From positions 526,098 to 590,097 of the forward strand of contig CP064975.1 in NCBI GenBank assembly GCA_016699425.1: a stretch of 64,000 nucleotides of DNA, given 5' to 3'. Positions 3,450 to 22,715 of the stretch are shown piece after piece. The notes below the pieces were generated by a model. The model saw nothing but the letters and a program-made list of their open reading frames with translations. It did not search any database and had not been told where the DNA came from. Position 1 is the first letter of the stretch. Every line of letters begins with the position of its first letter. The stretch is from Candidatus Moraniibacteriota bacterium (GTDB lineage Bacteria; Patescibacteriota; Minisyncoccia; Moranbacterales; UBA1568). The position numbers and the translations under genes are program-made.

Positions 3450-3467
3450 AGGGGCAGAAGTTAGTCG

Positions 3468-5405
3468 CTAAATAATCTCCCGAAACCGCTCCCGATAGCG
3501 AGTGTACAAGAACGAGATCGACAGGAGCACGATGCCGAGCACGATCGATGAGATGATCCGATAGAGCGGGCCGAGACTCCAGAGATCATGGAAAAACAAC
3601 TTGAGAAGCGCGAACACGAGGAGGAGCAGTCCACCGATACGCGGCCAGCGGGATTTCCGAAGCATCCCGAACGCAAGCAAAACGATAGCGTACGCGATCC
3701 AAAAGAGCGACAGGGTTACGCTCGCCCAACTTTGGAGACTCCGGAGTTCCTCGCGAGCTGCCCGGCCCGGATCATAGTCCGCCGTATACCCCAAGGATGC
3801 CGTAGTGGCATCGACCGCGCTGATCCGGGTGTCATAGTAATAATCTATCTCCATACTGCCTGCGGAGACAGCAAAGAAATTAGCCGTAAAGAAGAACAAA
3901 ACAATATATGATGATATGGTCGCTTTCCAGCGGAGATCCTCTGTCGAGTCAAGACCGCGCTGCGCGAGATATCCAAGCAGGAAAAGCACTCCGACCGCAA
4001 ACAGGTACGTCAGAAATCGTCCATTGAAGATCGCACTGGATCCCGGATCGATATGGAACGGTTCGATGATGATGAGACGCAGGAAGGTCAGCGCCGCCAC
4101 CAGCAATCCGAACTGCAGGATCGCTTGGTGCCGCGTGTAGATGCCGTAAGCGAAGATGACGAACATCTCGACGATCCAGGCCAGGGTGATAACATTACCT
4201 CGGAACTCGATCGGGATCGCCAGCGTGAGGAATCCGATCGAAAGGAAAGAGAGCAGCGCCCGGAGCGTCGAATCGTTGGGAGAAAATGCTTTCGCGGCGT
4301 AGGCGAAGAGGAAATAGTACAGACCGAGCAGAGCGGTGAAGTACCCCATGAAAGGACGATACTCAACCCACAAGAGACTCCAGACACCGACAAAGTAGAT
4401 AAGCGGCAACAGGAGTGTCAGCGCTCGGTCAGCCGTGAGCGGCTCGTTCAGTCCAGCTTTTGTCTCGGTCTTGGATCGGATCCGATAGGCGAGGAACGAT
4501 ACGGAGTACAAGATGAAGAAGAGTGTCATGAACGTCAGGGCGACCAAGAGTTGGCTGTCACTATAAAACTGCCCTGACCAGGCCAGGTATATGAAGACGG
4601 TTGCAATCGATCCGAGTACGTTGAGTCGGTACCAGGATTTGAAGAATGAGACAATCAGGATGGCGATATCGAGGATGAGAATATACGAGAAGAGCGCGAC
4701 GGGGTGGTTTTCGCCCGAAGAGATAAGTATCGGGGTCATGAAACCGCCGGCCGAAGCCAACACAAGGATGAGCTGCGCATCGTACCGAATTGCCAACGCC
4801 ATCCCGGACGCCGTCACGAGCGTAAAGGCTCCATAGGCGGCCCAGACCGGCAGGAGGTGATAGAACTGATAGGCCGCAAAGAAAGAGAGGTAGAGAATCA
4901 CAATCCCCCCGCCGGTCAGGAGGTACGCGTATCTCGGATACTGCCGGATGAGCTTTTCACCCAGTCCGAGCAGCCCGACGCCGATCGCGATACCGATGAT
5001 GACCCGACCCGTCTCCCCGATCCAATCGTTGTCGAAGGCGTATTTAAGGAAGAAGGAAATCCCCAGGATAAGGACCACGATACCCGCGACCGAAAACCAT
5101 TTCATGCCGAGTTTCTCTTCAAAGGAAGCCGAGTGAGCAGCCGGGGTCGGTTGTTCAGCCTTCTTTTCCGTGTACACCGGAGGAGCGGGAGGCGTTGGCG
5201 GGGTCGGTGGAACGGGCGATGCAAAAGCGGTTCCCTCGGGAATCAATGGTGCCGTTCTGGTTGGCTCGGCCGTGGGCGGTGTCACCTGATTAGCATGCTT
5301 CAGCGAGGCAATCTCACGGCTTTGCTCCTCCAGCTGGGTATTCATCTTGATGAGCAGCTCGCGAAGCGACGCATCGTTCTCATTCTTCTGATCTTCTGGT
5401 TCCAT
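3468..5405 (-). CDS. Large integral membrane protein resembling the DUF2339 family
   Basis: 645 aa with an N-terminal coiled-coil (…LEEQSREIASLKHANQ…), a Pro-rich linker, then ~16 TM helices. Assignment is from architecture recalled from the family, not a search. Confidence 0.6.
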   Translation of the reverse strand: MEPEDQKNENDASLRELLIKMNTQLEEQSREIASLKHANQVTPPTAEPTRTAPLIPEGTAFASPVPPTPPTPPAPPVYTEKKAEQPTPAAHSASFEEKLGMKWFSVAGIVVLILGISFFLKYAFDNDWIGETGRVIIGIAIGVGLLGLGEKLIRQYPRYAYLLTGGGIVILYLSFFAAYQFYHLLPVWAAYGAFTLVTASGMALAIRYDAQLILVLASAGGFMTPILISSGENHPVALFSYILILDIAILIVSFFKSWYRLNVLGSIATVFIYLAWSGQFYSDSQLLVALTFMTLFFILYSVSFLAYRIRSKTETKAGLNEPLTADRALTLLLPLIYFVGVWSLLWVEYRPFMGYFTALLGLYYFLFAYAAKAFSPNDSTLRALLSFLSIGFLTLAIPIEFRGNVITLAWIVEMFVIFAYGIYTRHQAILQFGLLVAALTFLRLIIIEPFHIDPGSSAIFNGRFLTYLFAVGVLFLLGYLAQRGLDSTEDLRWKATISSYIVLFFFTANFFAVSAGSMEIDYYYDTRISAVDATTASLGYTADYDPGRAAREELRSLQSWASVTLSLFWIAYAIVLLAFGMLRKSRWPRIGGLLLLVFALLKLFFHDLWSLGPLYRIISSIVLGIVLLSISFLYTRYRERFREII

Positions 5406-5424
5406 AAGGTAGAGCGACTAACAA

Positions 5425-5796
5425 TTAGAGGAAACGAGGAGTCATGTAACGCAGTATGCTACCGGCAAACAGCACCATGAAAACCCAACGCGTGAACACC
5501 CCGTATGGGATATATCGTCGCCGCTTCCAGAAATACACAATGAAGAATATATCCAGGACGACAGTGAGGAACGGGAGGAAAATTAGGAAGAGAAGTGGGA
5601 CGATGAAACCGATGAGAAAGTCCGACACGACCGATGTCTGAGGAGCGTTGACGGTCGGGACAACTCCATACACCACTCTCGCGCTCGCCACGATATCTTC
5701 TTCTGAGTAACCGGAAGTCCTCAGCACCGAGATGAGTGCTTCTTTGGCATATCGTTCCTTGTTCTCGCGGAGATACGAGATCGCCTGGTCGCTCAT
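5425..5796 (-). CDS. Small membrane protein, hypothetical
   Basis: 123-aa ORF with a soluble N-terminus and 2-3 TM helices. It is tightly linked (19 nt) upstream of the DUF2339-like gene. Confidence 0.45.
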   Translation of the reverse strand: MSDQAISYLRENKERYAKEALISVLRTSGYSEEDIVASARVVYGVVPTVNAPQTSVVSDFLIGFIVPLLFLIFLPFLTVVLDIFFIVYFWKRRRYIPYGVFTRWVFMVLFAGSILRYMTPRFL

Positions 5797-5802
5797 AGAG
5801 AA

Positions 5803-6744
5803 TCAGTTCTTACACGCCCCTTCCGAACATCCATTCGGACAGAAATATATCTTACTCCATGAAGACTGCGGTCCGCTCGGAAGGAACGCGCCGCAACCAC
5901 TCTCCATGACGTGGCTCGTGTCACGACAGACTTCGAATTCACTGCCTCGAAGGAATAGATCAGCCCCATCCGTATCCGAACACGAAGCCGATAGATCTAT
6001 CGGGTAGATATCCGGGAAAACCGCTGTCTGGCGATTCGGACTGACCGAAACGGATACCGTATGTTCCATCCCGTTCTTCGTGAATGTTTCGACAGAATAC
6101 TCCCCTGCCAGGATATCCCTGAAGAGACAGATCCCATTCTTATCGGAGAGTCGACTGAGAAGATACCCTTCGGCTGGATACCCAGCGGTGGTAAAGAGCC
6201 GGCACAACGCACCCGACACGAAACCGCCGCCGCCATCGATGACGAACACCTGCAGACTCCCGGCGGACTCCTTGGGCGAAGTGAGATATCGAAGTTGACT
6301 CTCAGTCAGCGGGTGGGCAGACACTGAAAGTCCTAAGTCCCCGAATATCAGAGCTGATTTCCGACCCGTCCGCGCCGGAACCCTGTTATATGGATCCGGA
6401 GATACCGATCCGGGATTGGCCTCTTTAGTAGCCACAACACTCCCCGAAGTCAGTGGTCCTGGGTGCAGTTGTTCGATGGAACCCTGCTGATTTCGGATGT
6501 TTCCAGCCGCCTGTTGCACGGCCTTCAGTTTCGAGTTATTTTCCATATCCTCCTGATACCGACGCTCCTGTTCGGCACGCTCACTGGCTCTTTTCGTGAT
6601 CAATTCCCGGTTTGCACCGGTAAGTGCGATCCCAAAAACCGTTGTCAGGATAAGAAAAACAATGCCCCCAAAGAAAAGCACTGCTTGATCCTTGTTCATA
6701 TCGTCAATCAGAATTTTTTTTATAATACCATAGGGGATTGCCAC
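5803..6744 (-). CDS. Membrane-anchored coiled-coil protein with a Cys-containing C-terminal domain, hypothetical
   Basis: The ORF has a GTG at 6744 and an alternative ATG at 6699 (MNKDQAVLFFGG…). One N-terminal TM helix. The start is uncertain. Confidence 0.5.
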   Translation of the reverse strand: MAIPYGIIKKILIDDMNKDQAVLFFGGIVFLILTTVFGIALTGANRELITKRASERAEQERRYQEDMENNSKLKAVQQAAGNIRNQQGSIEQLHPGPLTSGSVVATKEANPGSVSPDPYNRVPARTGRKSALIFGDLGLSVSAHPLTESQLRYLTSPKESAGSLQVFVIDGGGGFVSGALCRLFTTAGYPAEGYLLSRLSDKNGICLFRDILAGEYSVETFTKNGMEHTVSVSVSPNRQTAVFPDIYPIDLSASCSDTDGADLFLRGSEFEVCRDTSHVMESGCGAFLPSGPQSSWSKIYFCPNGCSEGACKN

Positions 6745-6911
6745 TGGGCAAAAACCGAAACCTCTACGCCAGCATACTCGTACCCTGTTTCAGAAGAAGA
6801 AGCGCTGTCACTAGTGACTCTCCACACTTGTCGCTACGATGTTACAATTCTTGACAAAGAACTGTGTTTCAATTACTCTGAGACGTTCCGAGATTGCTCG
6901 TTAACAACCAG

Positions 6912-6918
6912 AAGGAGT
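6912..6918 (+). promoter_or_regulatory. Shine-Dalgarno sequence (AGAAGGAG) for the 6925 start, inside a divergent promoter region 6745-6924
   Basis: AAGGAG lies 7 nt upstream of ATG 6925. This supports the internal start rather than the 6463 ORF extension. Confidence 0.5.
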
Positions 6919-6924
6919 TTCACC

Positions 6925-7725
6925 ATGACTGTTGAGAATCTCACCTCCGTGCTCAATCAAAGATCCTACACAGCGGCAATGGAGGAGTTCGGGATGGCCT
7001 ATCCGTATCAAAATTTCCCCGACGTCATCCGACACACCATTGCGCTCATATACGGGGACCAGGAAGGACATCGGGATACGCTCATTTCCTGTCGTTGCTG
7101 TATCAGTCGTCCACCTCAGCAGGAAATACGGTCCAATTTCGTTGTCGGAGTACGGTTTCGTCACTTTGGCAGACAAACGACCGTTGACCTCGTGAGCTAC
7201 CCGGTCGGCAGATTTCGTAATCTCTCCCAGGAACATGCCCGACGGCTCGACTGGCTGAGTGCTCCCACCGATGCCCAATTCGGCAACAAAGTCTTGCCAG
7301 CGCCGCTCATCGTGGCAGAGGGTGTAGTCAAAATCTCATCGGATGGTACATTGAAATTCTCAGATTCTGGTAATGATCGCCCAGAGTCGCTCTTTGGCTT
7401 CGATGTCTCGCTCATCGCAAACTCGATTGCTTCGTTCTTCGATCTCCGGACAGCGGGCGCGACGAGCCATGAGTTCTTCCACCGACTCAATTGTTTTCTC
7501 GTCGAGTACAAGGGCAGACCTGACTTCTACGAACAATTCGCACTCTGGCTATGTGAACAGCGGATTCAATTGACTCCCGCTCAGAGTGAAGCACTGATCG
7601 CGATGAAGGCACGCGATCGGGCTCAATCAGAGCACGTCGACCTCTCCACTGCCTACCTGGAAGAAATATACTCCGGGCAGTTAACGAGAATCTGCAACAC
7701 CATTCGGGCCATCCGTGGTGAGTAA
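6925..7725 (+). CDS. Hypothetical cytoplasmic protein (266 aa)
   Basis: This is the in-frame internal start of tracked ORF 6463..7725. The upstream 460 nt of that ORF overlap the minus-strand gene 5803..6744 and lack a ribosome-binding site. A strong RBS precedes 6925. Confidence 0.6.
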   Translation: MTVENLTSVLNQRSYTAAMEEFGMAYPYQNFPDVIRHTIALIYGDQEGHRDTLISCRCCISRPPQQEIRSNFVVGVRFRHFGRQTTVDLVSYPVGRFRNLSQEHARRLDWLSAPTDAQFGNKVLPAPLIVAEGVVKISSDGTLKFSDSGNDRPESLFGFDVSLIANSIASFFDLRTAGATSHEFFHRLNCFLVEYKGRPDFYEQFALWLCEQRIQLTPAQSEALIAMKARDRAQSEHVDLSTAYLEEIYSGQLTRICNTIRAIRGE

Positions 7726-7783: not shown

Positions 7784-7897
7784 AGACTACATCTGACTCA
7801 ATTGGAACTCAATCATAGCAGAACCGACGGCTTGGTCGGAACTTGGAATGGCTAAAGAGGAGTATTCAGAATGAACTTCCTCAGAAACCTATTTCTT

Positions 7898-8401
7898 CTA
7901 GCCTATTAAGGATTCTTCAAATTTCTCCCAGTACTCTGGGTAGTTCTTTTCTACAAAGGGACGCAAAACTTTCTCTGTTTTCTCCCTAGCTTTTTGTTTC
8001 TCTGCTTCGCTAGAAAATGCCGCAGCCCTATTATTATCCAGTTTATCCGCCATTTTTACCTTTATGAGGTCATCGTCCTTCGTGGAGACTATTTTTTGGA
8101 AAAATGTATCCCACGTATCACCTTGATTCCAAGTTAGAGTTTCAACACCGGCTATTACATCAGTTCCAAATTCATTTTTGAGATTCTTCACATCGTATTC
8201 TGACCACTCTCCTAAGTCGTGACAGAGAGCAATCAATACAGCTCTGGTATTCTTCACGTCAAACTCTTCCAATAAAATTCTTGCCACTCTCACTGGGTGT
8301 CGATTGTAGTTTCCTGTATATAAAGTTCTTGGAGTATCGTGATACTTTTCTACGATTCCTCTCGCCCGTTCCACAACACCTCTGTCCTGTGCCTCAACCA
8401 T
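7898..8401 (-). CDS. HD-domain phosphohydrolase (YfbR-like 5'-deoxynucleotidase family), AT-rich gene
   Basis: H…HD motif (HPVRVARILLEEF…ALCHDLGE). The tracked ORF extends to 8629, but its N-terminus overlaps tRNA-Ala, so the start was moved to Met77 (8401). The start is uncertain. GC content is ~40% against ~59% for the surrounding sequence. Confidence 0.6.
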   Translation of the reverse strand: MVEAQDRGVVERARGIVEKYHDTPRTLYTGNYNRHPVRVARILLEEFDVKNTRAVLIALCHDLGEWSEYDVKNLKNEFGTDVIAGVETLTWNQGDTWDTFFQKIVSTKDDDLIKVKMADKLDNNRAAAFSSEAEKQKAREKTEKVLRPFVEKNYPEYWEKFEESLIG

Positions 8402-8572
8402 ATTCAAAACTACTGACTTGTGAACTCCCCAGTTCTCGTAGGTTTCTAGACTCTTGTAGTATTGTTCTTGTATAAGTTTTTCTAGTATATTTGTGGACCT
8501 GGGGAGAATCCCTGCTCGCCTCTGGCGGGGAACTCCCGACTCGACAACCCGCCCCGTTAGAAAATCATTCTG

Positions 8573-8643
8573 TGGACCCGGCGAGAATCGAACTCGCGCC
8601 TCTGCAATGCGAATGCAGCGTTGTACCACTTAACTACGGGCCC
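8573..8643 (-). tRNA. tRNA-Ala (anticodon CGC)
   Basis: Manual fold: acceptor GGGCCCG/CGGGTCC with a G3:U70 pair (the Ala identity element), D-loop AGTGGTA, anticodon stem CTGCA/TGCAG with loop TTCGCAT, and T-arm GCGAG-TTCGATT-CTCGC. CCA is not encoded. Confidence 0.8.
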
Positions 8644-9227: not shown

Positions 9228-9698
9228 TTACAATTTTTCGACGACCTGGATATCCTGCTCGAGCAAGACATCGCCCTCCCCGAAGAGAAACTTCGTCCGG
9301 AATTTTTTCCCCGCGAGAAATACAGGGAACCAGTATCGATCATCTGACCACATCATATCGTAGGGTATCGCCTCGATGGGAAACCACTCGGGACGCATTT
9401 CTTCTGTCTCAATCGGTTCCCGCTCGTAGTCAATCGCCCGAAATACGTGAGCTTCAAGCACTTCGTCTGGCCAAGCGGTAAAGCGAAACTCATGTCTTCC
9501 TGCCAGCTCCATCGCTGTAATTTCGATGCCACACTCCTCCTTTGTCTCACGCCGCGCGGCATCCTGGATGCTCTCGCCCGTCTCTACTTTGCCGCCGAAA
9601 CCATTCCAGCGACCCGCGCCGAAACCACGTTTCTTCATCCCGAGGAGGATTCTATCATCACGAATCACAAAGACAAGGGTGTAGAGCTTTCGTTTCAT
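9228..9698 (-). CDS. NUDIX hydrolase
   Basis: Nudix box GFGGKVETGESIQDAARRETKEECGIEI. Confidence 0.8.
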   Translation of the reverse strand: MKRKLYTLVFVIRDDRILLGMKKRGFGAGRWNGFGGKVETGESIQDAARRETKEECGIEITAMELAGRHEFRFTAWPDEVLEAHVFRAIDYEREPIETEEMRPEWFPIEAIPYDMMWSDDRYWFPVFLAGKKFRTKFLFGEGDVLLEQDIQVVEKL

Positions 9699-10835: not shown

Positions 10836-11276
10836 TCAGAAATTACTTTTTAGGTTGGCACTCAACACGATAGCGACCGCCGCCGCAATGACCCCGAACC
10901 AGAGCGCTCCGTCTTGAAGCCAGACGGTCGGATCCGGCCAATGCTGGGAAATGGCTGCTCGGATATATTTCGGGGCACTGACCGACACGACCAGGACGAG
11001 TGACGCCGCGATGAAAACACCGGCCCCCGGCAGACTCCTGTCCAGCATCCGCTCGAGCACGACGAGCGCCAAACTGGTGAGGAGTGCCGGAACAATGATG
11101 CCCGCCACAATACGACCAACCCAACCGGGAGCGACCGCTGCCTGATACACTGACTCAGACGACACCCCCTGTGTCCGCCTCCAGGCTGGTCCGAACCAGA
11201 ACGGAGAATACCAGATGAACTGAGCAATGGAGTAGGCCAGGGAACCCGAGAGGATAGGGAAAAGTACGTGTGACAT
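10836..11276 (-). CDS. Membrane protein (4 TM), hypothetical
   Basis: 146-aa hydrophobic ORF. Its stop is 3 nt from the start of the L,D-transpeptidase gene. Confidence 0.5.
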   Translation of the reverse strand: MSHVLFPILSGSLAYSIAQFIWYSPFWFGPAWRRTQGVSSESVYQAAVAPGWVGRIVAGIIVPALLTSLALVVLERMLDRSLPGAGVFIAASLVLVVSVSAPKYIRAAISQHWPDPTVWLQDGALWFGVIAAAVAIVLSANLKSNF

Positions 11277-11283
11277 GACCAGC

Positions 11284-11450
11284 TATTTCAAATGCTGTTT
11301 CGCCTCTGATTCGAGTTTGTCAATCCGCTCAACCGACCGGCGAACGGCCCGGACGATGCGGTGGCGAGTGAGATAGCCGAGCGCCGCCAAGACGACGCCC
11401 GAAGCGATCCCGCCCGCAAATTCCGCCCAGAATTGTTCCCAGAAATTCAT
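11284..11450 (-). CDS. Possible small membrane protein; the reading frame appears broken by a 1-nt homopolymer indel
   Basis: ATG at 11450 gives MNFWEQFWAEFAGGIAS…. After ~17 codons the GC3-rich, protein-like frame (…GVVLAALGYLTRHRIVRAVRRSVERIDKLESEAKQHLK*) continues in the +1 frame. This is consistent with one missing G in the run at ~11395-11400. Confidence 0.25.
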
Positions 11451-11456
11451 ACACTT

Positions 11457-12044
11457 TTAATAGAATAATCGTTTCTCCTCTGTCTGTAGCAGGGTCATCA
11501 GTTCATCAAAATACGGTTGAATCTCTGGTGAAAGGGCCACCTTGTCTTTCTTATTCTGGTACAACATATCGAGGGTAATCGACTTCTCCCGCCATGTCCG
11601 ACCACCGTCGAGATACATCTTGAGAAGTGGCTCGATCTTGTCGAGGGCATAGACGAAGCGGCTTTCGGCATCCCCCCTCGTCACATAACCACGAATCGCC
11701 ATGTGCATCTCAGGGACTTCCGGAAATTCTGCTACCAGTCGTTCAGCCGCGAGCCGTTCGCGCTCAGGTTTCGAGGCGAGCAGTTCCTTGTCTTCACTAT
11801 ACACATACGTATCCCCAGCGTACACCTCGACCAGATCATGGGCCAGTGCATAGCAAAGTACCTTCTCCCGATCCAAGGGGAATTTCCCTGTATCCAGGAT
11901 ATACCACGCGAGCATGGCCAGGCTGTACGAATGCTCCTGATCGTTCTCCCACCGCTCGCTCTCTGTCACATGAACCACTCGCTCCACTTTTTGGAGTTCG
12001 TTCAGAAGCCTAGCGAACGAAAGGAGACGTTCTAGATTTTTCAC
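11457..12044 (-). CDS. HD-domain phosphohydrolase (YfbR-like)
   Basis: HSYSLAMLAWYI…ALAHDLVEVYAGD. Confidence 0.8.
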   Translation of the reverse strand: MKNLERLLSFARLLNELQKVERVVHVTESERWENDQEHSYSLAMLAWYILDTGKFPLDREKVLCYALAHDLVEVYAGDTYVYSEDKELLASKPERERLAAERLVAEFPEVPEMHMAIRGYVTRGDAESRFVYALDKIEPLLKMYLDGGRTWREKSITLDMLYQNKKDKVALSPEIQPYFDELMTLLQTEEKRLFY

Positions 12045-12075
12045 AATACTTGGCGCAACTTAAATGTGATGATCT

Positions 12076-12372
12076 TCACCATGGTGTTCCAATCAACCCG
12101 CTCCCCATAGTATCCCCGGTACGCCGCAAGCATCGCTTCCCGGCTCTCGTAGCCCTCGTGACCACGGAAATCCGCTTCTTCGATTGCTCCGAGAGTCTTT
12201 TCCGAACAGTCACGATCCGCGCCTGGGCGAACTCCTCCCCGGTCGACTTGTTGATAAACGATAGCTCATCGCCGACGGAGAGAGCCTTGTCATCGAACAT
12301 CCGCCACGTCGAAGTCTTTGCTCCAGAGAGCACCAGTTTCGATAGGCTGTCCGTAAACTTCAGCGTTTTCAT
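12076..12372 (-). CDS. ASCH-domain protein (YqfB-like fold)
   Basis: 98-aa beta-barrel protein, SLSKLVLSGAKTSTWR…. Size and pattern are typical of ASCH. Confidence 0.65.
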   Translation of the reverse strand: MKTLKFTDSLSKLVLSGAKTSTWRMFDDKALSVGDELSFINKSTGEEFAQARIVTVRKRLSEQSKKRISVVTRATRAGKRCLRRTGDTMGSGLIGTPW

Positions 12373-12382
12373 GCTTTTCGTT

Positions 12383-12838
12383 TCAGATTTTAACTCCCGC
12401 CCTCTTGATCATCCTGAAATTCCTCACCGTTTCAGAATGCATGGGCTTGGGGAACTTCCCGACCGGAAACCAGCCGATTTCATCCATCTTGTCTGGTTCA
12501 CCGATCTTCACCTTCCTCGGATCCACCTCTGCTGTGAAGAGGGCTTTCACCCAGTGAGTCGGTATTCCCTCATGCATACGGAGAGTGTTGAGGAAAGTAA
12601 TTTGTTTCAGATGCTTCGCCGTCACGCCATATTCTTCACGGATCTCCCGCTTCACGGTCTCTTCAAACGTCTCTCCGAATTCCATCGAGCCGCCGCCCGT
12701 ATCCCACACTCCCTGTTCGTCCCGGCAGCGCCCGCTCCGTCGATGCAAGAGGATATTCCCCTTCCCATCATGACAAACAAAAACACAGGTCACCCCGATG
12801 AAATCAATTCCCTTACGCACATCAAGTGACTTTTTCAT
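12383..12838 (-). CDS. NUDIX hydrolase
   Basis: Nudix box GGSMEFGETFEETVKREIREEYGV. The start was set at MKKSL (12838), which forms an ATGA overlap with the upstream gene's stop. The tracked ORF extends to 12874. Confidence 0.8.
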   Translation of the reverse strand: MKKSLDVRKGIDFIGVTCVFVCHDGKGNILLHRRSGRCRDEQGVWDTGGGSMEFGETFEETVKREIREEYGVTAKHLKQITFLNTLRMHEGIPTHWVKALFTAEVDPRKVKIGEPDKMDEIGWFPVGKFPKPMHSETVRNFRMIKRAGVKI

Positions 12839-13311
12839 AATTTTATTTTCGGATTTTGATTCCCATTTATCCACTCGGCCAGATCATCCAGGTTTTCAAA
12901 AATCTGATCGGAGAGCTCCGAAACAAACGGGTGAACCCACTCTTTTCTCTGCCCACCCTCCGCTTCCACCCATCCCCTGTATTCCGACCCATAGGGACAA
13001 AGCGTCAATACGGGTATGCCGGCGCGCTTCGCCATCACCATCTCAGCCCCGACACCTAACCCCTTCTTAGTCCGCGCATCTACTATGATCACGTCACTTC
13101 GAAGGAGCATATCCACGTCCGCATCAAATCTTTCTTTCGCGCGATATTCCGGGATATCGATAGTATTCGGATTAAGCATTTCTACCTCCATTGCAGCCAG
13201 AGCATCCTTCAAGACTCTCTCGTCTTCTTCAGACCAAAAATATTCGGCTGTACGGTTGTCACCCGCGCCCTTCTTTACGCTCCCGGAAAGAAAAATAGAA
13301 ATCTTTTTCAT
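12835..13311 (-). CDS. Nucleoside 2-deoxyribosyltransferase-like protein
   Basis: Rossmann-like protein with …DVIIVDARTKKGLGVGAEMVMAKRAGIPVL…, resembling the NDT family core. Confidence 0.55.
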   Translation of the reverse strand: MKKISIFLSGSVKKGAGDNRTAEYFWSEEDERVLKDALAAMEVEMLNPNTIDIPEYRAKERFDADVDMLLRSDVIIVDARTKKGLGVGAEMVMAKRAGIPVLTLCPYGSEYRGWVEAEGGQRKEWVHPFVSELSDQIFENLDDLAEWINGNQNPKIKL

Positions 13312-13312
13312 A

Positions 13313-13585
13313 CTATTCTATGGAGATAATCTGAACCCCGAGACGATCAACTTCTTCTTTCGAATTGGACGCATAGATGTCTTCGAGCTTGAAACGACTT
13401 ACTTCCGTCACGTGTTTTTCGATCGTTCTCCCGGTATATGTTTTCGTATCCTTGTCCCATTCCCGGAGCCGGAGCGTGTCGCCTTCGGCAATCTCAAAGT
13501 CATTCAGACGAAGTTCATACTTCTTCTTGCCTGAAGCGAGTCGATCAAAATATTCCTTGTTCAGTTTTTTTTCGACAACAGCCAT
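13313..13585 (-). CDS. DUF3850-type (ASCH-like) small protein
   Basis: 90 aa. K(K)YELRLNDF…GD.L.L.EWD pattern. The stop is 1 nt from the next gene's start. Confidence 0.6.
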   Translation of the reverse strand: MAVVEKKLNKEYFDRLASGKKKYELRLNDFEIAEGDTLRLREWDKDTKTYTGRTIEKHVTEVSRFKLEDIYASNSKEEVDRLGVQIISIE

Positions 13586-13671
13586 ACATACTTCTTAATC
13601 TACATAATTCTTCAGGAAGAATTCAACATCCGATCTCGTAGTGTCCGTATATTCCAAGTTTCATACAGTCA

Positions 13672-14166
13672 TTACAATACGTCAAAAGACGGCCTAAATG
13701 AAGGTACAAAGTTTTCGGGTGAATCGGCATACATCGCGAAAACTTCATCGCGGGTAAACCACTTAACCTGATCCACCTCCTGCGGATCAATCAAGAATGT
13801 ATCCTCAGAGCAATCAACCGTCACCCAATACCATTGCGTGAAATGTTCATATTCGTCCTTTATATGCTCAATCGGGCCAATCTTCAGATCGGATTCAGAA
13901 AGGTTGAGTCCGACTTCTTCCATCGCCTCCCTCCGGATAGTCTCTTCATAGGTCTCCCCCGCTGCATTCATTCCAACCACGGCTGCCCCCCATTTTCCGG
14001 GATAGTGTTTTTTCACAAGCGCTCTCTTTGCAAGCAAAACCCGCTTTTGACTGTCGAAAATCCAGAGTGCAGACACCCGATAGATATCATCCAGCCGAAG
14101 CAAAGAGCGCTCCTTTGCACCCAAGAGAGCATCGTTTGAATCAACAATAATAATTTTTTCTGACAT
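13672..14166 (-). CDS. NUDIX hydrolase
   Basis: GETYEETIRREAMEEVGL Nudix box. Confidence 0.75.
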   Translation of the reverse strand: MSEKIIIVDSNDALLGAKERSLLRLDDIYRVSALWIFDSQKRVLLAKRALVKKHYPGKWGAAVVGMNAAGETYEETIRREAMEEVGLNLSESDLKIGPIEHIKDEYEHFTQWYWVTVDCSEDTFLIDPQEVDQVKWFTRDEVFAMYADSPENFVPSFRPSFDVL

Positions 14167-14343
14167 AGATCACTTCTGTTTAATATTTTCCATACGATTT
14201 TATTCAGCAAATCCATTCTTCGCAAGCCACTCTGCGGCTTCGCGACTGAGTGACGCATTATTCCCCGTAAAGAGGACAAGCCACTTCCCCCGGCTTCAGT
14301 CTAAGGGTAATACACTTCATAAAAGTAGGCTCCGTGGCATTGC

Positions 14344-14934
14344 TTAAAGACTTTGTTGAGCAGTCAATTCTTCTTGAACCACTTTCCACATGGCTTGTAG
14401 CTCAGGAAAATTATGTACTGGTTCATCTGCCCAATGCAAAAGGATGGAGTCAATATCATTGCGTTCCCAATTCTTTTTTCCTAAATCAATCCTCTGTATA
14501 ATCACTTCTATTTTATCCAATGCTTTTGCGAATTTAGCTTCTTCAGAGCCTTGATTCTCATACTCCAACCATAGTGCCTTCAAAGCATCTCCCGTTTTAC
14601 TGGGAAGGACCGCGTACAAATCTTCAGCGGCTCGCATTTCTTTTTTCTGCTGATTATCGTGCGCGGCCTTATCATCTCTATCAAGAATCCATACATCCCC
14701 AGCCGTAACTTCGACCAGATCATGCACGATCATGATTTCTAAAGATTTCAATAAGTCGATTTTCAAATCAAGTTCTCTATGAAGTATCATCGCCATAAGA
14801 GCCACGCGCCAGCTATGTTCAGCAGGACTTTCTTTCCGAGAATTATCGCTTATAGAAACTTTTCGCTGTATAGTTTTGAGTTTCTCCGCTTTATTCAGGA
14901 ATGTGAGTATTCGACTCAGATTATTCTCATCCAT
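14344..14934 (-). CDS. HD-domain phosphohydrolase (YfbR-like), AT-rich gene
   Basis: HSWRVALMAMILHRE…MIVHDLVEVTAGD. GC content is ~38%. Confidence 0.75.
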   Translation of the reverse strand: MDENNLSRILTFLNKAEKLKTIQRKVSISDNSRKESPAEHSWRVALMAMILHRELDLKIDLLKSLEIMIVHDLVEVTAGDVWILDRDDKAAHDNQQKKEMRAAEDLYAVLPSKTGDALKALWLEYENQGSEEAKFAKALDKIEVIIQRIDLGKKNWERNDIDSILLHWADEPVHNFPELQAMWKVVQEELTAQQSL

Positions 14935-15003
14935 ATCCTATCGAAAGAGATTATTTCCCATGGCACCCGCCTACCGGCGTGTAGGCTTCTCTTCTGCTTC
15001 ATA

Positions 15004-15345
15004 TTAGAACATTTTTCCTCCTTTTGGAACCTTCTTTGTCGGGCTCAGCAACACCACGTCGCCGTTTTCATCCGGTACTCCCAGGGTAAGTGTTTCCGAC
15101 ACGAAAGGACCAATCTGTTTGGAAGGAAAGTTTACGACGCCGATAACCAACCTCCCGATCAGTTCTTCTTTTTTATAATGTTTCGTGATCTGAACGGAAG
15201 ATTTTTTGATACCGATTTCCTGACCAAAATCTATCGTCAGCTTGTACGCCGGTTTCCTGGCTTCCGGAAAATCCTCTACCTGTACGATTTCCCCTACTCG
15301 TATATCTACTTTTTCAAAATCCTCATAGCTGATCATACTTTTCAC
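15004..15345 (-). CDS. tRNA-binding domain protein (CsaA/Trbp111-like)
   Basis: DIRVGEI…AYKLTIDFG…SSVQI…LIGRLV. OB-fold tRNA-binding signature. Confidence 0.75.
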   Translation of the reverse strand: MKSMISYEDFEKVDIRVGEIVQVEDFPEARKPAYKLTIDFGQEIGIKKSSVQITKHYKKEELIGRLVIGVVNFPSKQIGPFVSETLTLGVPDENGDVVLLSPTKKVPKGGKMF

Positions 15346-15356
15346 TCTTTCAGGAT

Positions 15357-15845
15357 TTATTTATCTACGAATTGACCAGTTTCCTTATTCCTTTTAACCT
15401 CGTTCCAGCCATACACTTTCCCGTTCATTGCAATGTAAATACCCTTAGGTACTGTCTGGACTGCGATAACTGCAGCGCCTACATTAAACATGGCATCCGA
15501 GTCAGAAAACTTTTCTGGTCGCATCGATCCTGTGATTATGATGGTTTTATTTTGTATCTCACTCAGCTTGTCGGCGGTTTCAATCATTGTGTCCGTACCA
15601 TGCGTGATTATGATTTTATCTCCAACAGCATTTCTGCAGGCCTCAAGGATTTTCGCCCGATCATCATCGGTAAGATCCAGACTATCTTTTTTAAGTAACG
15701 AGATAATCTCATGCTCGAAGTTTGGATTTACTTTTTCTAAAATCCGTTTGACTGCCGGTTCGCCAATTTCGAAGGCATACCCTTTCGTCATACGAGGATA
15801 CTCCTTATCAATAGTCCCACCAATTTGGATAAAAGTTATTTTCAT
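15357..15845 (-). CDS. Asparaginase N-terminal-domain protein (short, 162 aa)
   Basis: IGGTID, ITHGTDTM and TGSMRP motifs of the asparaginase/glutaminase N-domain. Confidence 0.6.
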   Translation of the reverse strand: MKITFIQIGGTIDKEYPRMTKGYAFEIGEPAVKRILEKVNPNFEHEIISLLKKDSLDLTDDDRAKILEACRNAVGDKIIITHGTDTMIETADKLSEIQNKTIIITGSMRPEKFSDSDAMFNVGAAVIAVQTVPKGIYIAMNGKVYGWNEVKRNKETGQFVDK

Positions 15846-15863
15846 AACTAATTGTATACATCC

Positions 15864-18569
15864 CTACTTCCCATGACACTTTTTGTACTTCTTGCCGCTG
15901 CCACAGGGGCAGGGGTCGTTCCGGCCGACTTCAGCCGCATTGTGGATGGGTGACTGGGGCTCGGACGGTTTGACCTTCTGTTCTTTGCCCTCGGGACTGA
16001 CACCCGCGAACTGCGGGATGGTGTCCGACGCGCCCTTGTATTCGACGGCTCGCGGGACGGACGAGGTGACACCCGGATGGAGCGGCGTGATCTTGAACAA
16101 GGTGACCAGATAGGTCTTGCGCACCGTATCCATGAGTCCGACAAAGAGGTCATAGGCCTCGCGCTTGTACTCGATCAAGGGATCGCGTTGACCATAGCCG
16201 CGCAGCCCGATGCCCTGACGCAGATAGTCGATTTCGTCGAGATGATTCATCCACAGCGTATCGAGCGACTGAAGCAGGATGAGCCGCTGCAGCCGGTTCC
16301 AATCATTCTCGCCGATCGTCACTTCCTTCACGGCAAAGGCCCGCTTCGCTTCGCCGATAAGATACTCGGAGATAGCAGACTTTTTCTCGGGGTCAGTCTT
16401 CGATCGGTCCTCGCGGATACTCTCGAGTTTCGTCCGGGCCGCCTTTTCATCGAGCTCGGTGAAAAGACTGTTTGCCTCCCCTACAATATCGGTTAGATTC
16501 CACTCGCCCTCATCGCCGGCTGTATGGAAGCTGACGACGCGCTCAAATTCATCACTGACCAAACCGAGCGTCGTATCGCGATACTCGGTGGTCCGGAGCC
16601 CCTCGACGCGTTTCTTGTAGACGACTTCACGCTGTTTGTTCATCACATCGTCATAGTCGAGGACGTGTTTGCGGATATCGAAGTTGTAGCCTTCGATCTT
16701 GGACTGAGCGGATTCGATCGTCTTGGAGACCAGGCCGTTTTCGATCGCTTCATCGTCCGGCAGGCCCAAGCTCGTCATCATGCTCTTCATCCGATCCCCG
16801 CCAAAACGCCGCATCAGTTCGTCCTCGAGCGAGACATAAAACTGCGAGACGCCCGGATCCCCCTGACGACCAGCCCGGCCCCGCAGCTGATTGTCGATGC
16901 GCCGCGCCTCGTGCCGCTCACTGCCGATGATCATCAGTCCGCCGAGTGCCTGCACACCGTCCCCGAGCTTGATGTCGGTCCCGCGACCAGCCATATTCGT
17001 CGCGATCGTCACCGCGCCCTGCTGCCCGGCACCGGCGACGATCTGTGCTTCCTTCTCATGATTCTTCGCATTCAGGACCAGGTGCGGCACCCCCTCATGA
17101 GCGAGAAGTGCGGCGAGATATTCGGACTTCTCGATCGCGATGGTCCCGATGAGGACCGGCTGCCCCGTCGCATGGACTTCCTTCACCCGCGCGGCGATGG
17201 CCTTAAACTTCGCTTCCTCGGTCTTGTAGATGACATCCGGCAGGTCGCGCCGCACCATCGGCCGATGCGTCGGGATCTCGGTCACGTCGATCTTATAGAC
17301 TTTGGCGAATTCCTCGGCCGAAGTGGACGCAGTACCGGTCATGCCCGCCAGCTTGTCGTAGAGGCGGAAATAGTTTTGGAATGTGATGGTCGCCAGCGTC
17401 CGGCTCTCGCGCTGCACCGCGACGTGCTCCTTGGCTTCGATCGCTTGGTGCAGGCCCTCACTGTAGCGGCGGCCCGGCATGAGGCGACCCGTGAAGTCAT
17501 CGACGATGATCACCTCGCCGTCCTTCACCACATAGTCGCGGTCGAGCTTGAAGATGATATGTGCCTTGAGCGACTGCTCCAGATGATGGACGTACTGCAC
17601 ATTGCCACTCGCATAGATATTCTCCATCCCGAGGAGTTTCTCGACATGCTCGATACCAGCATCAGTCAGTGTGACCACCTTCATCTTTTCATCGATGGTG
17701 TAGTCCCCGCCCGCATCGTTATGCGAGTCCGCTGACGAAGCGTTTCGGGCGGGCTCTTCTACCGCTTTGAGCCGTGGGACGATCCCCGCAAAGCGTTCAT
17801 AGAGCTTGGTCGATTCGGTATCTGGGGCAGAAATGATGAGCGGGGTCCGCGCCTCGTCAATGAGGATGGAGTCAACTTCATCGACGATGGCAAAGTGGAG
17901 TTCACGCTGCACCTTCTCCTCCAGACTCGCCACCATGTTGTCACGCAGATAGTCGAAGCCGAACTCATTGTTTGTCCCATAGGTGATGTCACAGGCATAG
18001 GCTTCGCGACGACTGATCGGGAGCAGGTTTTCCATCTCGACTGACACGGCATCGATATCAGTAGACTTCGGCTCAAAGCGATACGATGCTCCCTGACCGA
18101 GGATGCAGGCCGTCGACAGCCCGAGGAAATGATACACTCGGCCCATCCAATTGGCATCGCGCTTGGCCAGGTAATCATTCACCGTCACGACATGCACGCC
18201 CTTCCCCGTGATAGCATTCAAATAGATGGGCAGGGTTGAGGTGAGGGTCTTACCTTCGCCAGTCTTCATCTCGGCGATGGTCCCGCGATGGAGCACGATG
18301 CCACCGACGAGCTGGACATCATAGTGACGTTCACCGATCGCACGGCGGGCGGCTTCACGCACGACCGCATACGCCTCGGGCAACAGATCATCGAGCGCTG
18401 TCCCCGCCGCGAGCCGCTGCCGAAATTCAGCTGTCTTGGCTTGCAGGGCCTGATCCGACAGAGCAGTCGTGGCCACATCGAAGCCATTGATCGCTTCGAC
18501 GAGCGGCCGGATCTTGGCAATTTCTCGTTCATTGGAACCGAAGAGCTTTTGGAAGAAAGACATAGGCAA
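15864..18569 (-). CDS. secA: Preprotein translocase ATPase SecA
   Basis: 901 aa with DEAD motor, preprotein-binding and helical scaffold domains, and a C-terminal zinc-binding tail [14 protein letters not shown]. Confidence 0.95.
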
Positions 18570-21439: not shown

Positions 21440-22153
21440 CTATCTATCAACACGAGACGAAACCGCTCGAGCTCGGAGGAGAAATACGGTTTCCGCTTTG
21501 AGCTGATTTTTCACAAATGCTTTTTGCTGCTCATCAATCAGCTCGCCCAGACCCGCGAGCAGTGCGGTCTCTGGGATACGCTCGATGAAACTGGCACACG
21601 TTTCAAGATACTCCGGGACTGAAACGATAGCGTATGCCTTGAGTACCGCAGCATCGATATCCCACCCCTGCTTCAGAAAAAAATATACATCAAACAGATC
21701 ACGAGCAGCAAATTTTTTCCGCTGTATCAGCGCTACAAGTTTCGCCGAGAGCATCGAAGTCTTCGTCATCACGAGCGCCGCTATCCCCAGATAACTTTTC
21801 ATCTCATAGGTCGCACCGATGTTCCGCGTGTTGATTTCCACCTTGATCTGATGCTCCCCTGTACTGTATGAAAGAGCGAAGAAGATGGTGGCGAACTTCT
21901 GCTGTTCGTCTTTGATCTCACCGTAGCGCTCGAGAATCTGGCGAATCTTTCGAAAAATCAGCTCCCGGTTTTCGTTCGAATCATCAAGCAGATCAAAATC
22001 AAGATCCACCGAGAAACGAGGCAGCTCATAGAAGAGGAGAGCGGCGGTACCACCTTTGAATCCCAAAAAGGACGAAATAGACACATCAGAATAAATGTCT
22101 TTTAAGATCTGCGTCATGATAAGCTTATGCTTGGCACTATCGAGGGTGGGCAT
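21440..22153 (-). CDS. AbiEii-type nucleotidyltransferase toxin (DUF1814-like), type IV TA system
   Basis: FLGFKGGTAALLFYELPRFSVDLDFDL…DLFDVYFF. Paralogous (~45% identity) to 29848..30543. The start is approximate. Confidence 0.7.
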   Translation of the reverse strand: MPTLDSAKHKLIMTQILKDIYSDVSISSFLGFKGGTAALLFYELPRFSVDLDFDLLDDSNENRELIFRKIRQILERYGEIKDEQQKFATIFFALSYSTGEHQIKVEINTRNIGATYEMKSYLGIAALVMTKTSMLSAKLVALIQRKKFAARDLFDVYFFLKQGWDIDAAVLKAYAIVSVPEYLETCASFIERIPETALLAGLGELIDEQQKAFVKNQLKAETVFLLRARAVSSRVDR

Positions 22154-22715
22154 ACTCTTGCATATATCTCTCCAAAACCTTTTCAAGTCTCTTACTCTTG
22201 TAGAGCGGTACGATCGTCTGACAACGTTTCCAGTCTATCCCACGGAGATTGTCGAAATAGTAATCCGGAAACAGATAGAGCCGATCGAGAAACGCCCGTT
22301 CCGGGATCGCCTCAGAGAAATATCCCCGATCCACTATCCCTGCCGGATTACCGAGAATGTCATCTCGCAGTTTTCGGTAGACGATTTTCTGACCAGCGAC
22401 CACGATCTCGCGAGAGAGATAGCTCGCAATAAAAATGGAATCATAGTACTGGAAGGTGACACCCGCACGAGCCAGGACGGTCTCGAAACTCACGTATGCC
22501 GGGGTGGAGATGCGCACCGCCAGTTCGCACCGATCGTATGTTGCATCCTTTGCAAAGACCCCTCGACGCAAACGGATGAGCTTCCCCGTCCTGACATAGT
22601 ACGCGAGCTTGGATTTGAGACTGTCCATCGACTTGGTACCACTGAGAAGAGCGATCTCTCGACTCGTGAAGACCGTTTGTTTGGACCCATAGAGAGCGAC
22701 GAGAAACCCGTCCAT
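22137..22715 (-). CDS. AbiEi-type antitoxin/transcriptional regulator
   Basis: N-terminal wHTH with TSREIALL…GKLIRLRRGVFA (the G.L.R…RGVY signature). It lies immediately upstream of and overlapping the AbiEii gene. Confidence 0.7.
   Translation of the reverse strand: MDGFLVALYGSKQTVFTSREIALLSGTKSMDSLKSKLAYYVRTGKLIRLRRGVFAKDATYDRCELAVRISTPAYVSFETVLARAGVTFQYYDSIFIASYLSREIVVAGQKIVYRKLRDDILGNPAGIVDRGYFSEAIPERAFLDRLYLFPDYYFDNLRGIDWKRCQTIVPLYKSKRLEKVLERYMQEYAHPR

Follow-up and report, generated by a model that had tools for sequence, protein, structure and literature searches.

Two groups of small proteins that act on modified nucleosides and nucleotides are among the closest comparisons for the locus described here. 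The first comprises YqfB of Escherichia coli and human EOLA1, ASCH-domain enzymes that deacetylate free N4-acetylcytidine (ac4C) within nucleotide salvage. Mutagenesis of YqfB showed Lys21, Thr24 and Arg26 to be essential for ac4C hydrolysis and Glu74 to be important (PMC6972931). A 2026 preprint on ASCH proteins defined the octapeptide G-x-K-x-x-[E/T/S]-x-R and reported that proteins with its Thr-type or Glu-type version hydrolyse ac4C, the Lys and the Thr or Glu being essential. A second preprint also placed ASCH deacetylation of free ac4C in salvage, and the genomic contexts that it gave were TmcA and restriction-modification, not NUDIX, HD or nucleoside 2-deoxyribosyltransferase (NDT) genes. 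The second group has the Rossmann-like NDT fold and includes DNPH1 (Rcl), a 2'-deoxynucleoside 5'-phosphate N-hydrolase and nucleotide-pool sanitiser that acts on 5-hydroxymethyl-deoxyuridine monophosphate (hmdUMP) with a Glu as nucleophile and an Asp as general acid (PMC10603095). It also includes BcmB and MilB, N-glycosidases of cytidine monophosphate; in MilB, which also accepts the 5-hydroxymethyl derivative, Phe at the Tyr24 position accommodates ribose and the F17Y change shifts the preference toward deoxyribose. Genes for proteins resembling both groups lie together with NUDIX and HD hydrolase genes in a 64,000-nucleotide (nt) stretch of the genome of Candidatus Moraniibacteriota bacterium (contig CP064975.1, positions 526,098 to 590,097 of the forward strand), the whole of which is here called the window and supplies the coordinates given below.

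These genes form an island at 11457-14934 on the minus strand, directly 3' of secA and followed by DUF1761, YkuD and NUDIX_C genes. On balance, and with only modest assurance, we favour reading the island as a modular set for house-cleaning and salvage of non-canonical, possibly N4-acylated cytidine, nucleotides, organized in two units. Module 1 would consist of HD2 followed by NUDIX_B, and module 2 of the translationally coupled DUF3850, NDT-like, NUDIX_A, ASCH and HD1 genes:

HD2, 14344-14934, minus strand: HD_3/HDDC2-like phosphohydrolase, 196 amino acids (aa), module 1
NUDIX_B, 13672-14166, minus strand: NUDIX hydrolase of the IDI/YfcD/DR0079 branch, 164 aa, module 1
DUF3850, 13313-13585, minus strand: small ASCH/PUA-like protein with a GKER-type octapeptide, 90 aa, first gene of module 2
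NDT-like, 12835-13311, minus strand: NDT-superfamily protein, 158 aa, predicted nucleoside 5'-monophosphate N-glycosidase of an unclassified DNPH1/MilB-like family
NUDIX_A, 12383-12838, minus strand: MutT/NUDX1/NUDT15-like NUDIX hydrolase, 151 aa from ATG 12838
ASCH, 12041-12372, minus strand: protein with a YqfB-type octapeptide, frameshifted; 98 aa as called (open reading frame (ORF) 12076-12372), 110 aa when repaired
HD1, 11457-12044, minus strand: HD_3/YfbR-like metal-dependent phosphohydrolase, 195 aa, last gene of module 2

Domain calls were made from the ORF listing and from Pfam and NCBIfam profile scans, and spacings were read off the sequence. The initial annotation had described nine genes on one strand at this place, the seven above plus those for CsaA and an asparaginase-domain protein, as one operon of nucleotide-pool enzymes. 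All nine were recovered where it had placed them, on the minus strand, and with the domains that it had named (ORF list, Pfam and NCBIfam); the score of the NDT-like protein lies below the cut-off, and the ASCH, DUF3850, NUDIX and HD domains were all matched in the profile searches. The close spacing also holds: the NDT-like stop overlaps the NUDIX_A ATG at 12838 (ATGA), the NDT-like ATG follows the DUF3850 stop after a single nucleotide, and the gap from the NUDIX_A stop to the ASCH ATG is 10 nt. Since the repaired ASCH gene ends at TGA 12043-12041 and thereby overlaps the GTG start of HD1 (GTGA), module 2 is coupled throughout, by start/stop overlaps or gaps of 1 to 10 nt. A functionally linked set of enzymes for the nucleotide pool or for modified nucleotides was thus borne out by domains, motifs, coupling, synteny and gene fusions. 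The single operon was not, as the block consists of two modules, HD2 with NUDIX_B and DUF3850 through HD1.

In the scheme that we propose, the NUDIX enzymes would hydrolyse aberrant or modified (deoxy)nucleoside triphosphates to monophosphates, keeping them from RNA and DNA. The DNPH1/MilB-like enzyme would split the N-glycosidic bond of the monophosphate to give the free base and (deoxy)ribose 5-phosphate, a ribonucleotide substrate being suggested by Phe at the position of the triad Tyr, as in MilB. The HD_3 phosphohydrolases would dephosphorylate monophosphates to nucleosides. Finally, the two ASCH-fold proteins would strip the N4-acyl (acetyl) group from cytidine-type substrates, and the base or nucleoside would re-enter normal salvage.

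Like YqfB and EOLA1, the ASCH and DUF3850 proteins of the window are small stand-alone proteins that match the ASCH domain, and both keep the Lys, Thr or Glu, and Arg of the octapeptide, as K19/T22/R24 and K21/E24/R26, respectively. The ASCH octapeptide, G17-A-K19-T-S-T22-W-R24, is of the Thr type, as is that of YqfB; G17, K19, T22 and R24 do not vary among 15 homologues, and the HMMER alignment puts K19/T22/R24 in register with YqfB K21/T24/R26. H76 and E77 are also invariant and Y93 is conserved in the family, in a C-terminal half that aligns unreliably with the region of YqfB holding His70, Glu74 and Tyr89. The DUF3850 octapeptide, G19-x-K21-x-x-E24-x-R26, is of the Glu type known from TthASCH and EOLA1, with G19, K21 and R26 invariant and E24 at least 90% conserved among 46 sequences. 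The octapeptides of the two families align in hhalign. DUF3850 scored 54.6 bits against PF12961 (cut-off 22.9) and 25.3 bits against the ASCH profile PF04266; its family profile matches the small ASCH structure PDB 3iuw (E 4e-8), which is also matched, at TM 0.69, by an AlphaFold model of low confidence (pLDDT 65). With the ASCH family profile the PDB gave weak matches to YqfB (E 0.14-0.2) and PH0355, and with the repaired ASCH protein as a single sequence it gave chance matches only. However, neither ASCH-fold protein is an orthologue of YqfB, the ASCH protein scoring 16.3 bits against the equivalog profile NF003443, whose cut-off is 93, and whereas the reported link of the YqfB clade is to the TmcA/NAT10 acetyltransferase, the operon partners here are NUDIX, HD and NDT-like genes. 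Judging from their motifs, we predict that both the ASCH and DUF3850 proteins remove an N4-acyl group from cytidine-type substrates.

That the block contains an ASCH gene was confirmed as far as the domain and its YqfB-type octapeptide are concerned, but the reading frame is interrupted and the gene may therefore be inactive here. The 98-aa ORF as called is a frameshift product whose last 37 residues are out of frame, arginine-rich and unmatched by the profile, and three-frame translation located the genuine C-terminal half (EKTLGAIEEADFRGHEGYESREAMLAAYRGYYGERVDWNTMVKIITFKL) in another frame. One base is missing within 12198-12204 (gttcgg/aaaag), where the homologues show V-R-EK-LG. Fourteen homologues of 107 to 123 aa and 54-64% identity cover 96-98% of the repaired protein, and the PF04266 match, which for the ORF as called is 28.8 bits and spans profile positions 1-58, improves after repair to 42.2 bits over positions 1-101 of 103 (cut-off 21.2), the repaired protein being scanned as a 114-aa version, that is, the 110-aa repair plus four out-of-frame junction residues. 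The frameshift may be an assembly error or may mark a real pseudogene. No further frameshifts were found among the window genes examined, and FtsW, TrmD and the GT4 glycosyltransferase are full length. In the related locus L087, secA (4335-6937) is split into four or five consecutive ORFs, so long-read assemblies of this clade do contain indel errors, a point relevant to the ASCH frameshift.

The NDT-like protein (P0001 in the homology search) is 100% identical to hypothetical protein IPJ68_02700 of a Candidatus Moraniibacteriota metagenome-assembled genome, although a look-up by exact sequence gave no result, and its family is unclassified and without a Pfam model. PF05014, the only Pfam family that it matched, scored 20.2 bits against a gathering score of 28.8 and was reached at E <= 0.01 by only 14 of 37 family members (best E 1.9e-5); among the matches listed, no homologue carried a precomputed Pfam domain. 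The family is small: only 38 clusters in a set of 5.8 billion proteins match it, and an exhaustive profile search of 1.84 billion gave 414 representatives. The AF2 model is confident (pLDDT 93.1), and all 49 of its PDB matches in Foldseek at E <= 1e-3 are NDT, DNPH1, MilB/BcmB or structural-genomics proteins of the same fold (TM 0.5-0.66, identity 12-19%). Eight residues are invariant in the family (G10, K14, D65, D78, R80, E90, Y111 and H127), and a WVHPF motif is specific to it.

The initial annotation had assigned this protein a different role, base exchange on a deoxynucleoside, in the order deacylation, exchange and diphosphate hydrolysis. In such a deoxynucleoside salvage route ASCH would deacylate the nucleoside and the NDT-like protein, as a true NDT, would then swap its base. 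The top Foldseek match is indeed a bona fide 2'-deoxyribosyltransferase (7o62; TM 0.63 by query and 0.73 by target), PF05014 is the sole Pfam match, the catalytic Glu is present, and a canonical PF05014 gene occupies the equivalent island of locus L004. Nevertheless, the best PDB sequence match of the family profile is rat Rcl/DNPH1. In that alignment D65 and E90, both invariant in 37 sequences, fall on Rcl D69 and E93, and G10-S11-V-K13-K14-G15 falls on the phosphate loop GSIRGG, a correspondence read from the alignment only; a GS-x-[KR]-x-G loop is thus shared, and G10 and K14 are invariant. The invariant basic residues K14 and R80, together with K82/K83, suggest a phosphorylated substrate, and the family does not conserve the Tyr/carboxylate that NDTs use at the C terminus. 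Where DNPH1 has the triad Tyr (Y24 in human and Y13 in rat), which favours 2'-deoxy substrates, the window protein and its relatives of the Moraniibacteria type have Phe7, like MilB, which acts on ribonucleotides; the chlamydial branch has Tyr there and is longer at the C terminus by about 50 aa. The NUDIX and Maf enzymes to which family members are fused (see below) yield nucleoside monophosphates. We regard the exchange route as quite improbable and its step order as probably wrong. Because of the best alignment with DNPH1, the phosphate loop, the MilB-like Phe and the fusions to NUDIX, HD_3 and Maf, the NDT-like protein is more likely a nucleoside 5'-monophosphate N-glycosidase, possibly acting on ribonucleotides, and less likely a base-exchange transferase. 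It shares with DNPH1 the fold, the Asp, the Glu nucleophile and the G-S-x-basic-x-G loop, with MilB the Phe, and with both a context of pool sanitation. It differs from them in being only 12-19% identical to the solved members and in its family-specific invariant K14, R80, Y111 and H127, its WVHPF motif and an extra beta-hairpin region.

The remaining enzymes of the island are phosphohydrolases of two superfamilies. NUDIX_A, NUDIX_B and, beyond the island, NUDIX_C score 67.6, 67.8 and 68.3 bits against the Pfam NUDIX profile, and all three carry the canonical NUDIX box G-x5-E-x7-R-E-U-x-E-E-x-G-U; the third NUDIX gene noted earlier (9228-9698) is real and MTH1-like. The box of NUDIX_A reads GSMEFGETFEETVKREIREEYGV, among solved structures it comes closest to plant NUDX1 (E 6e-13) and NUDT15, and its start is most likely ATG 12838, which gives the 151 aa of its orthologues, not GTG 12874. 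NUDIX_B is closest to solved structures of IDI, DR0079 and YfcD, and since its NUDIX box is complete (GMNAAGETYEETIRREAMEEVGL) it should be a hydrolase, not an isomerase. A type 1 isopentenyl diphosphate isomerase was considered for NUDIX_B and rejected on its scores against TIGR02150 (45.2 vs 105.8 bits) and NF002995 (65.2 vs 127 bits). HD1 matches HD_3 (95.8 bits) and, with 47 bits, a YfbR-like profile, and it has the metal-ligand pattern H38, H69-D70 and D134. HD2 matches HD_3 with 142.5 bits, has H40, H71-D72 and the D motif, and resembles PDB 3kh1 (E 2e-28) and HDDC2 (E 1e-16). Against the YfbR equivalog NF003009, which requires at least 122 bits, the HD proteins of the window scored 23.7 and 31.9. 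The window proteins therefore share NUDIX boxes and HD motifs with the house-cleaning enzymes MutT, MTH1 and NUDT15 and YfbR and HDDC2, but have no equivalog-level match to them. The locus also differs from those enzymes in stringing several such genes together with a predicted N-glycosidase and two ASCH-fold genes in translationally coupled operons, an arrangement of which we found no description.

Gene fusions and linked operons elsewhere bring the same families together. In locus L091 a 374-aa HD_3::NUDIX fusion (3771-4895) stands directly after secA and corresponds to HD2 (72% identity) plus NUDIX_B (46%). It aligns to window positions 14925-13705 and spans the 177-nt gap between the two genes, so that HD2 and NUDIX_B form one unit. 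Members of the NDT-like family are fused to HD_3 (P0169), NUDIX (P0199 and P0311) and Maf (P0262), partners that echo the operon of the window, and others to an SAM methyltransferase, TauD and NrdR. The P0199 fusion belongs to a run of eight overlapping or nearly abutting genes on a metagenomic contig (L175, 2082-6798), in the order NUDIX, HAD, MazG, NUDIX, NDT-like::NUDIX fusion, Ham1/ITPase, HIT and EamA transporter. The context is unambiguously one of house-cleaning and the super-operon is unusually complete, and with it the house-cleaning enzymes Maf, MazG, Ham1 and HIT are all co-operonic with, or fused to, relatives of the NDT-like protein.

The neighbourhood is also conserved in related Moraniibacteria, although in a modular manner. 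The following genes flank the island in the window:

asparaginase-domain protein, 15357-15845, minus strand: asparaginase N-terminal domain (Pfam 84.5 bits), 162 aa, bystander
CsaA, 15004-15345, minus strand: tRNA_bind/CsaA protein (NCBIfam 183.7 bits), bystander
secA, 15864-18569, minus strand: 901-aa ORF, conserved anchor, itself no functional part of the island
NUDIX_C, 9228-9698, minus strand: MTH1/NUDT1-like NUDIX hydrolase, 156 aa, syntenic flank beyond YkuD and DUF1761

In eight related loci (L001, L004 and L087 to L092) secA is likewise followed by a variable island of nucleotide-enzyme genes:

L088-L090: secA, 68-aa gene, NUDIX_A (151 aa), DUF3850, HD1
L087: secA, DUF3850, HD1, YkuD, NUDIX
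L001: secA, methyltransferase, cupin, 67-aa gene, NUDIX_A (151 aa), NDT-like, HD1, DUF1761, YkuD, NUDIX_C
L092: secA, DUF1653, ASCH, HD
L091: secA, HD_3::NUDIX fusion, 283-aa gene, DUF1653, ASCH, methyltransferase ... QueA, dCMP deaminase, NUDIX, DUF1761
L004: secA, NUDIX, pyrophosphatase, CsaA, NUDIX, PF05014 NDT, NUDIX ... NDT-like

Orthologues in these loci, compared by tblastn, are 59-62% identical for NUDIX_A (151 aa in L001 and L088), 61-76% for HD1, 86% for DUF3850, 63-64% for NDT-like, 64-65% for ASCH and 69-85% for secA. HD1 orthologues come after NDT-like or DUF3850 in L001, L087 and L088, and NUDIX_C orthologues (54-69% identity) keep their relative position in L001, L087, L088 and L092. 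Among the relatives the order NUDIX, X, HD_3 is thus kept while X, either DUF3850 or NDT-like, is swapped. A protein of about 136 to 149 aa (MKITLCGSIAF…GANTLLEMGLA…) also recurs in islands downstream of secA (L004, 5118-6026; L091, 6947-7396; L092, 7403-7846; L111, 1095-1505). It resembles an NDT-like motif by eye, but with no Pfam or PDB match and an hhalign probability of 7% against the NDT-like family it is left unassigned.

Beyond the clade, a scan of GTDB found the NDT-like family in 110 genomes, mostly of Chlamydiota, with a few Falkowbacteria and Parcubacteria and some Actinoplanes, Bradyrhizobium, Sphingomonas and Methylobacterium. The neighbours of the family vary, but a NUDIX_A-type gene stands directly upstream of the NDT-like gene in seven loci, several of them in Chlamydiota, often with overlapping codons. 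DUF3850 is widespread in Patescibacteria: its 114 homologues, up to 89% identical, are nearly all from that group, and at least 574 metagenomic relatives were found. Among the matches listed from metagenome loci L093-L172, an MTH1-like NUDIX gene of the NUDIX_C type is its commonest neighbour (16 of 212 neighbouring ORFs).

The same comparisons allow a simpler account, in which the genes share a place and no pathway: a recombination-prone spot after secA would gather independent housekeeping hydrolases, and their close spacing would reflect a compact genome. The gene content between secA and DUF1761/YkuD does differ in every relative examined, and genes unrelated to nucleotides share the spot, namely CsaA and the asparaginase here and a methyltransferase, cupin and cellulase in relatives. 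Among the matches listed, 26 metagenomic DUF3850 loci extend 3 kb or more upstream of the gene, and in 10 of these that 3-kb stretch contains secA. The base composition points the same way. The GC content falls sharply from about 0.55-0.60 to 0.40-0.48 across 12800-15850, as it also does at 7800-8600, and at third codon positions (GC3) the genes from NDT-like to the asparaginase reach 0.37-0.52, where secA has 0.73. The fall across 12800-15850 suggests recent exchange; with clade relatives ranging from 0.40 to 0.55 GC and the best match of HD2 and NUDIX_B in a relative of 43% GC, it points to an exchange of the half of the island nearer secA with a relative of lower GC content. Against mere co-location stand the fusions of the same families elsewhere (HD_3::NUDIX, and NDT-like with HD_3, NUDIX or Maf), the NUDIX, X, HD_3 order that persists while X is swapped, the recurrence of the NUDIX/NDT-like pair with overlapping codons in another phylum and the purely house-cleaning operon of L175. 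Because relatives have the same families side by side and other organisms have them fused, the clustering is beyond chance, and we consider co-location alone unlikely, though of all the alternatives it deserves the most serious thought.

A phage-related role or origin would be a further explanation. The ASCH/PUA-like proteins would then sense modified bases while the hydrolases deplete or destroy modified nucleotides specific to phages, or the whole would derive from a phage nucleotide-metabolism module. The content of the island is variable, an AbiEi/AbiEii pair lies about 6 kb away, ASCH clades are known from restriction-modification contexts, and DUF3850 is fused to ParB-CTPase in prophages. 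At L006 (3889-6465) an NDT-like homologue (46% identical) stands beside DUF4406 and dCTP deaminase genes on a phage-like contig of 149 kb. However, in PADLOC-DB only the three NUDIX proteins found a match, to the generic candidate model PDC-S07, and the HD, ASCH, NDT-like and DUF3850 proteins found none. The island holds no nuclease, ATPase or other effector, and no mobile-element genes were found between 11 and 16 kb in the window. Orthologues of DUF3850, NUDIX_A and HD1 keep their synteny and have a rate of evolution close to that of secA, as expected of vertical core genes; DUF3850, for instance, is 86% identical to syntenic relatives whose secA is 72-85% identical. Among 2.9 million viral contigs the NDT-like family occurs on one, a Methylobacterium contig that is the same as L028, and on this single match phage origin was rejected as a general explanation. 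A phage connection of either kind is thus very improbable. The AbiE genes form a type IV toxin-antitoxin pair on the minus strand (AbiEi-like, 22137-22715, AbiEi_4 24.2 bits, just under the cut-off; AbiEii, 21440-22186, 69.5 bits). The L006 contig consists mostly of small unannotated genes and may be a large phage genome, and DUF4406 is another NDT-like family.

Several points weigh against the house-cleaning and salvage reading of the island. The equivalog cut-offs in NCBIfam for YqfB, YfbR, MutT and IDI are missed by wide margins, so no gene here is the orthologue of a characterised enzyme; every substrate, the step order and the preference for ribo- or deoxynucleotides are matters of prediction, and only an alignment carries the Phe-for-Tyr argument over from MilB. 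The pathway logic is incomplete, since HD_3 and the N-glycosidase would not act in series but draw on one and the same monophosphate in competition. With the ASCH gene frameshifted, this organism may lack at least the ASCH step. In distant relatives NDT-like and DUF3850 are mostly not beside NUDIX or HD genes, and the linkage of DUF3850 to secA is about as frequent as its linkage to NUDIX. The enrichment of NUDIX-box ORFs beside NDT-like and DUF3850 (p 0.018 and 0.0025) speaks for the reading, but the values come from a strict NUDIX-box regular expression and phylogenetically non-independent loci and are indicative only. Finally, the small genomes of Candidate Phyla Radiation (CPR) bacteria keep gene order for reasons besides shared function.

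Some parts of the earlier description fall outside the island. CsaA and the asparaginase-domain protein had been listed with the cluster, but they are bystanders and recur with the nucleotide genes only through their position near secA. The former is a strong equivalog-level match in NCBIfam to a tRNA-binding or export chaperone, whose presence beside secA is unsurprising, and the latter matches a solved single-domain asparaginase of 185 aa (PDB 8uoo, E 6e-31). The third HD gene (7898-8629) is marginal: it is at the PF01966 cut-off (21.5 bits for the full ORF and 22.8 when trimmed, vs 22) but under the HD_4 gathering score (23.3-25.2 vs 27.2 bits). Its 243-aa ORF begins within tRNA-Ala(CGC) (8572-8643, minus strand), so that the real start is further in, and its domain is a RelA/SpoT-type HD_4 match in a low-GC patch. 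Elsewhere in the window, DUF3999 (421 aa) and DUF2339 (645 aa, membrane) genes are adjacent on the minus strand (2184-5405) as a conserved pair of unknown function. A search of the whole window against Rfam found one tRNA only at the gathering threshold, and within 11200-16000 nothing was found at E <= 1 and hence no riboswitch or leader RNA. Candidate promoters and terminators were no more numerous than in shuffled sequence, and a repeat scan found only matches between paralogues (HD and NUDIX motifs) and no inverted repeats.

All the enzymes considered here come from known superfamilies. We found no description in the literature of the DNPH1/MilB-like family, of its pairing or fusion with NUDIX, HD_3 or Maf, or of two ASCH-fold genes joining such a pair, and searches on Patescibacteria with Nudix and salvage, and on DNPH1 with bacterial Nudix operons, also found none. 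The NDT-like family is concentrated in Chlamydiota and Patescibacteria, both host-dependent groups. It is commonly accepted that CPR bacteria and environmental chlamydiae rely on nucleotides that they import. Those recovered from the breakdown of RNA and DNA include modified bases, which can be toxic or unsuitable for direct salvage. One might go further and suppose that an unrecognised DNPH1/MilB-like nucleoside monophosphate N-glycosidase, together with NUDIX and HD_3 enzymes and two ASCH-fold deacylases, dismantles, as a dedicated route, N4-acylated or otherwise modified cytidine nucleotides taken from host RNA, a bolder proposal that we put forward tentatively and that is unlikely to hold as it stands. 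If true, it would provide the first biochemical function for DUF3850 and a bacterial counterpart, within a single operon, of the sanitation steps of human EOLA1 and DNPH1. Should the substrates include N4-acetylcytidine nucleotides, the recently proposed ASCH-based ac4C salvage would extend from E. coli and humans to symbionts with reduced genomes, and the small, stable enzymes would be potentially useful for nucleoside chemistry; otherwise these would be well-supported but ordinary housekeeping genes of the nucleotide pool. The locus in any case offers a compact candidate set for modified-nucleotide processing and a first functional context for DUF3850, and the fusions link the predicted N-glycosidase to NUDIX, Maf and HD_3 enzymes.

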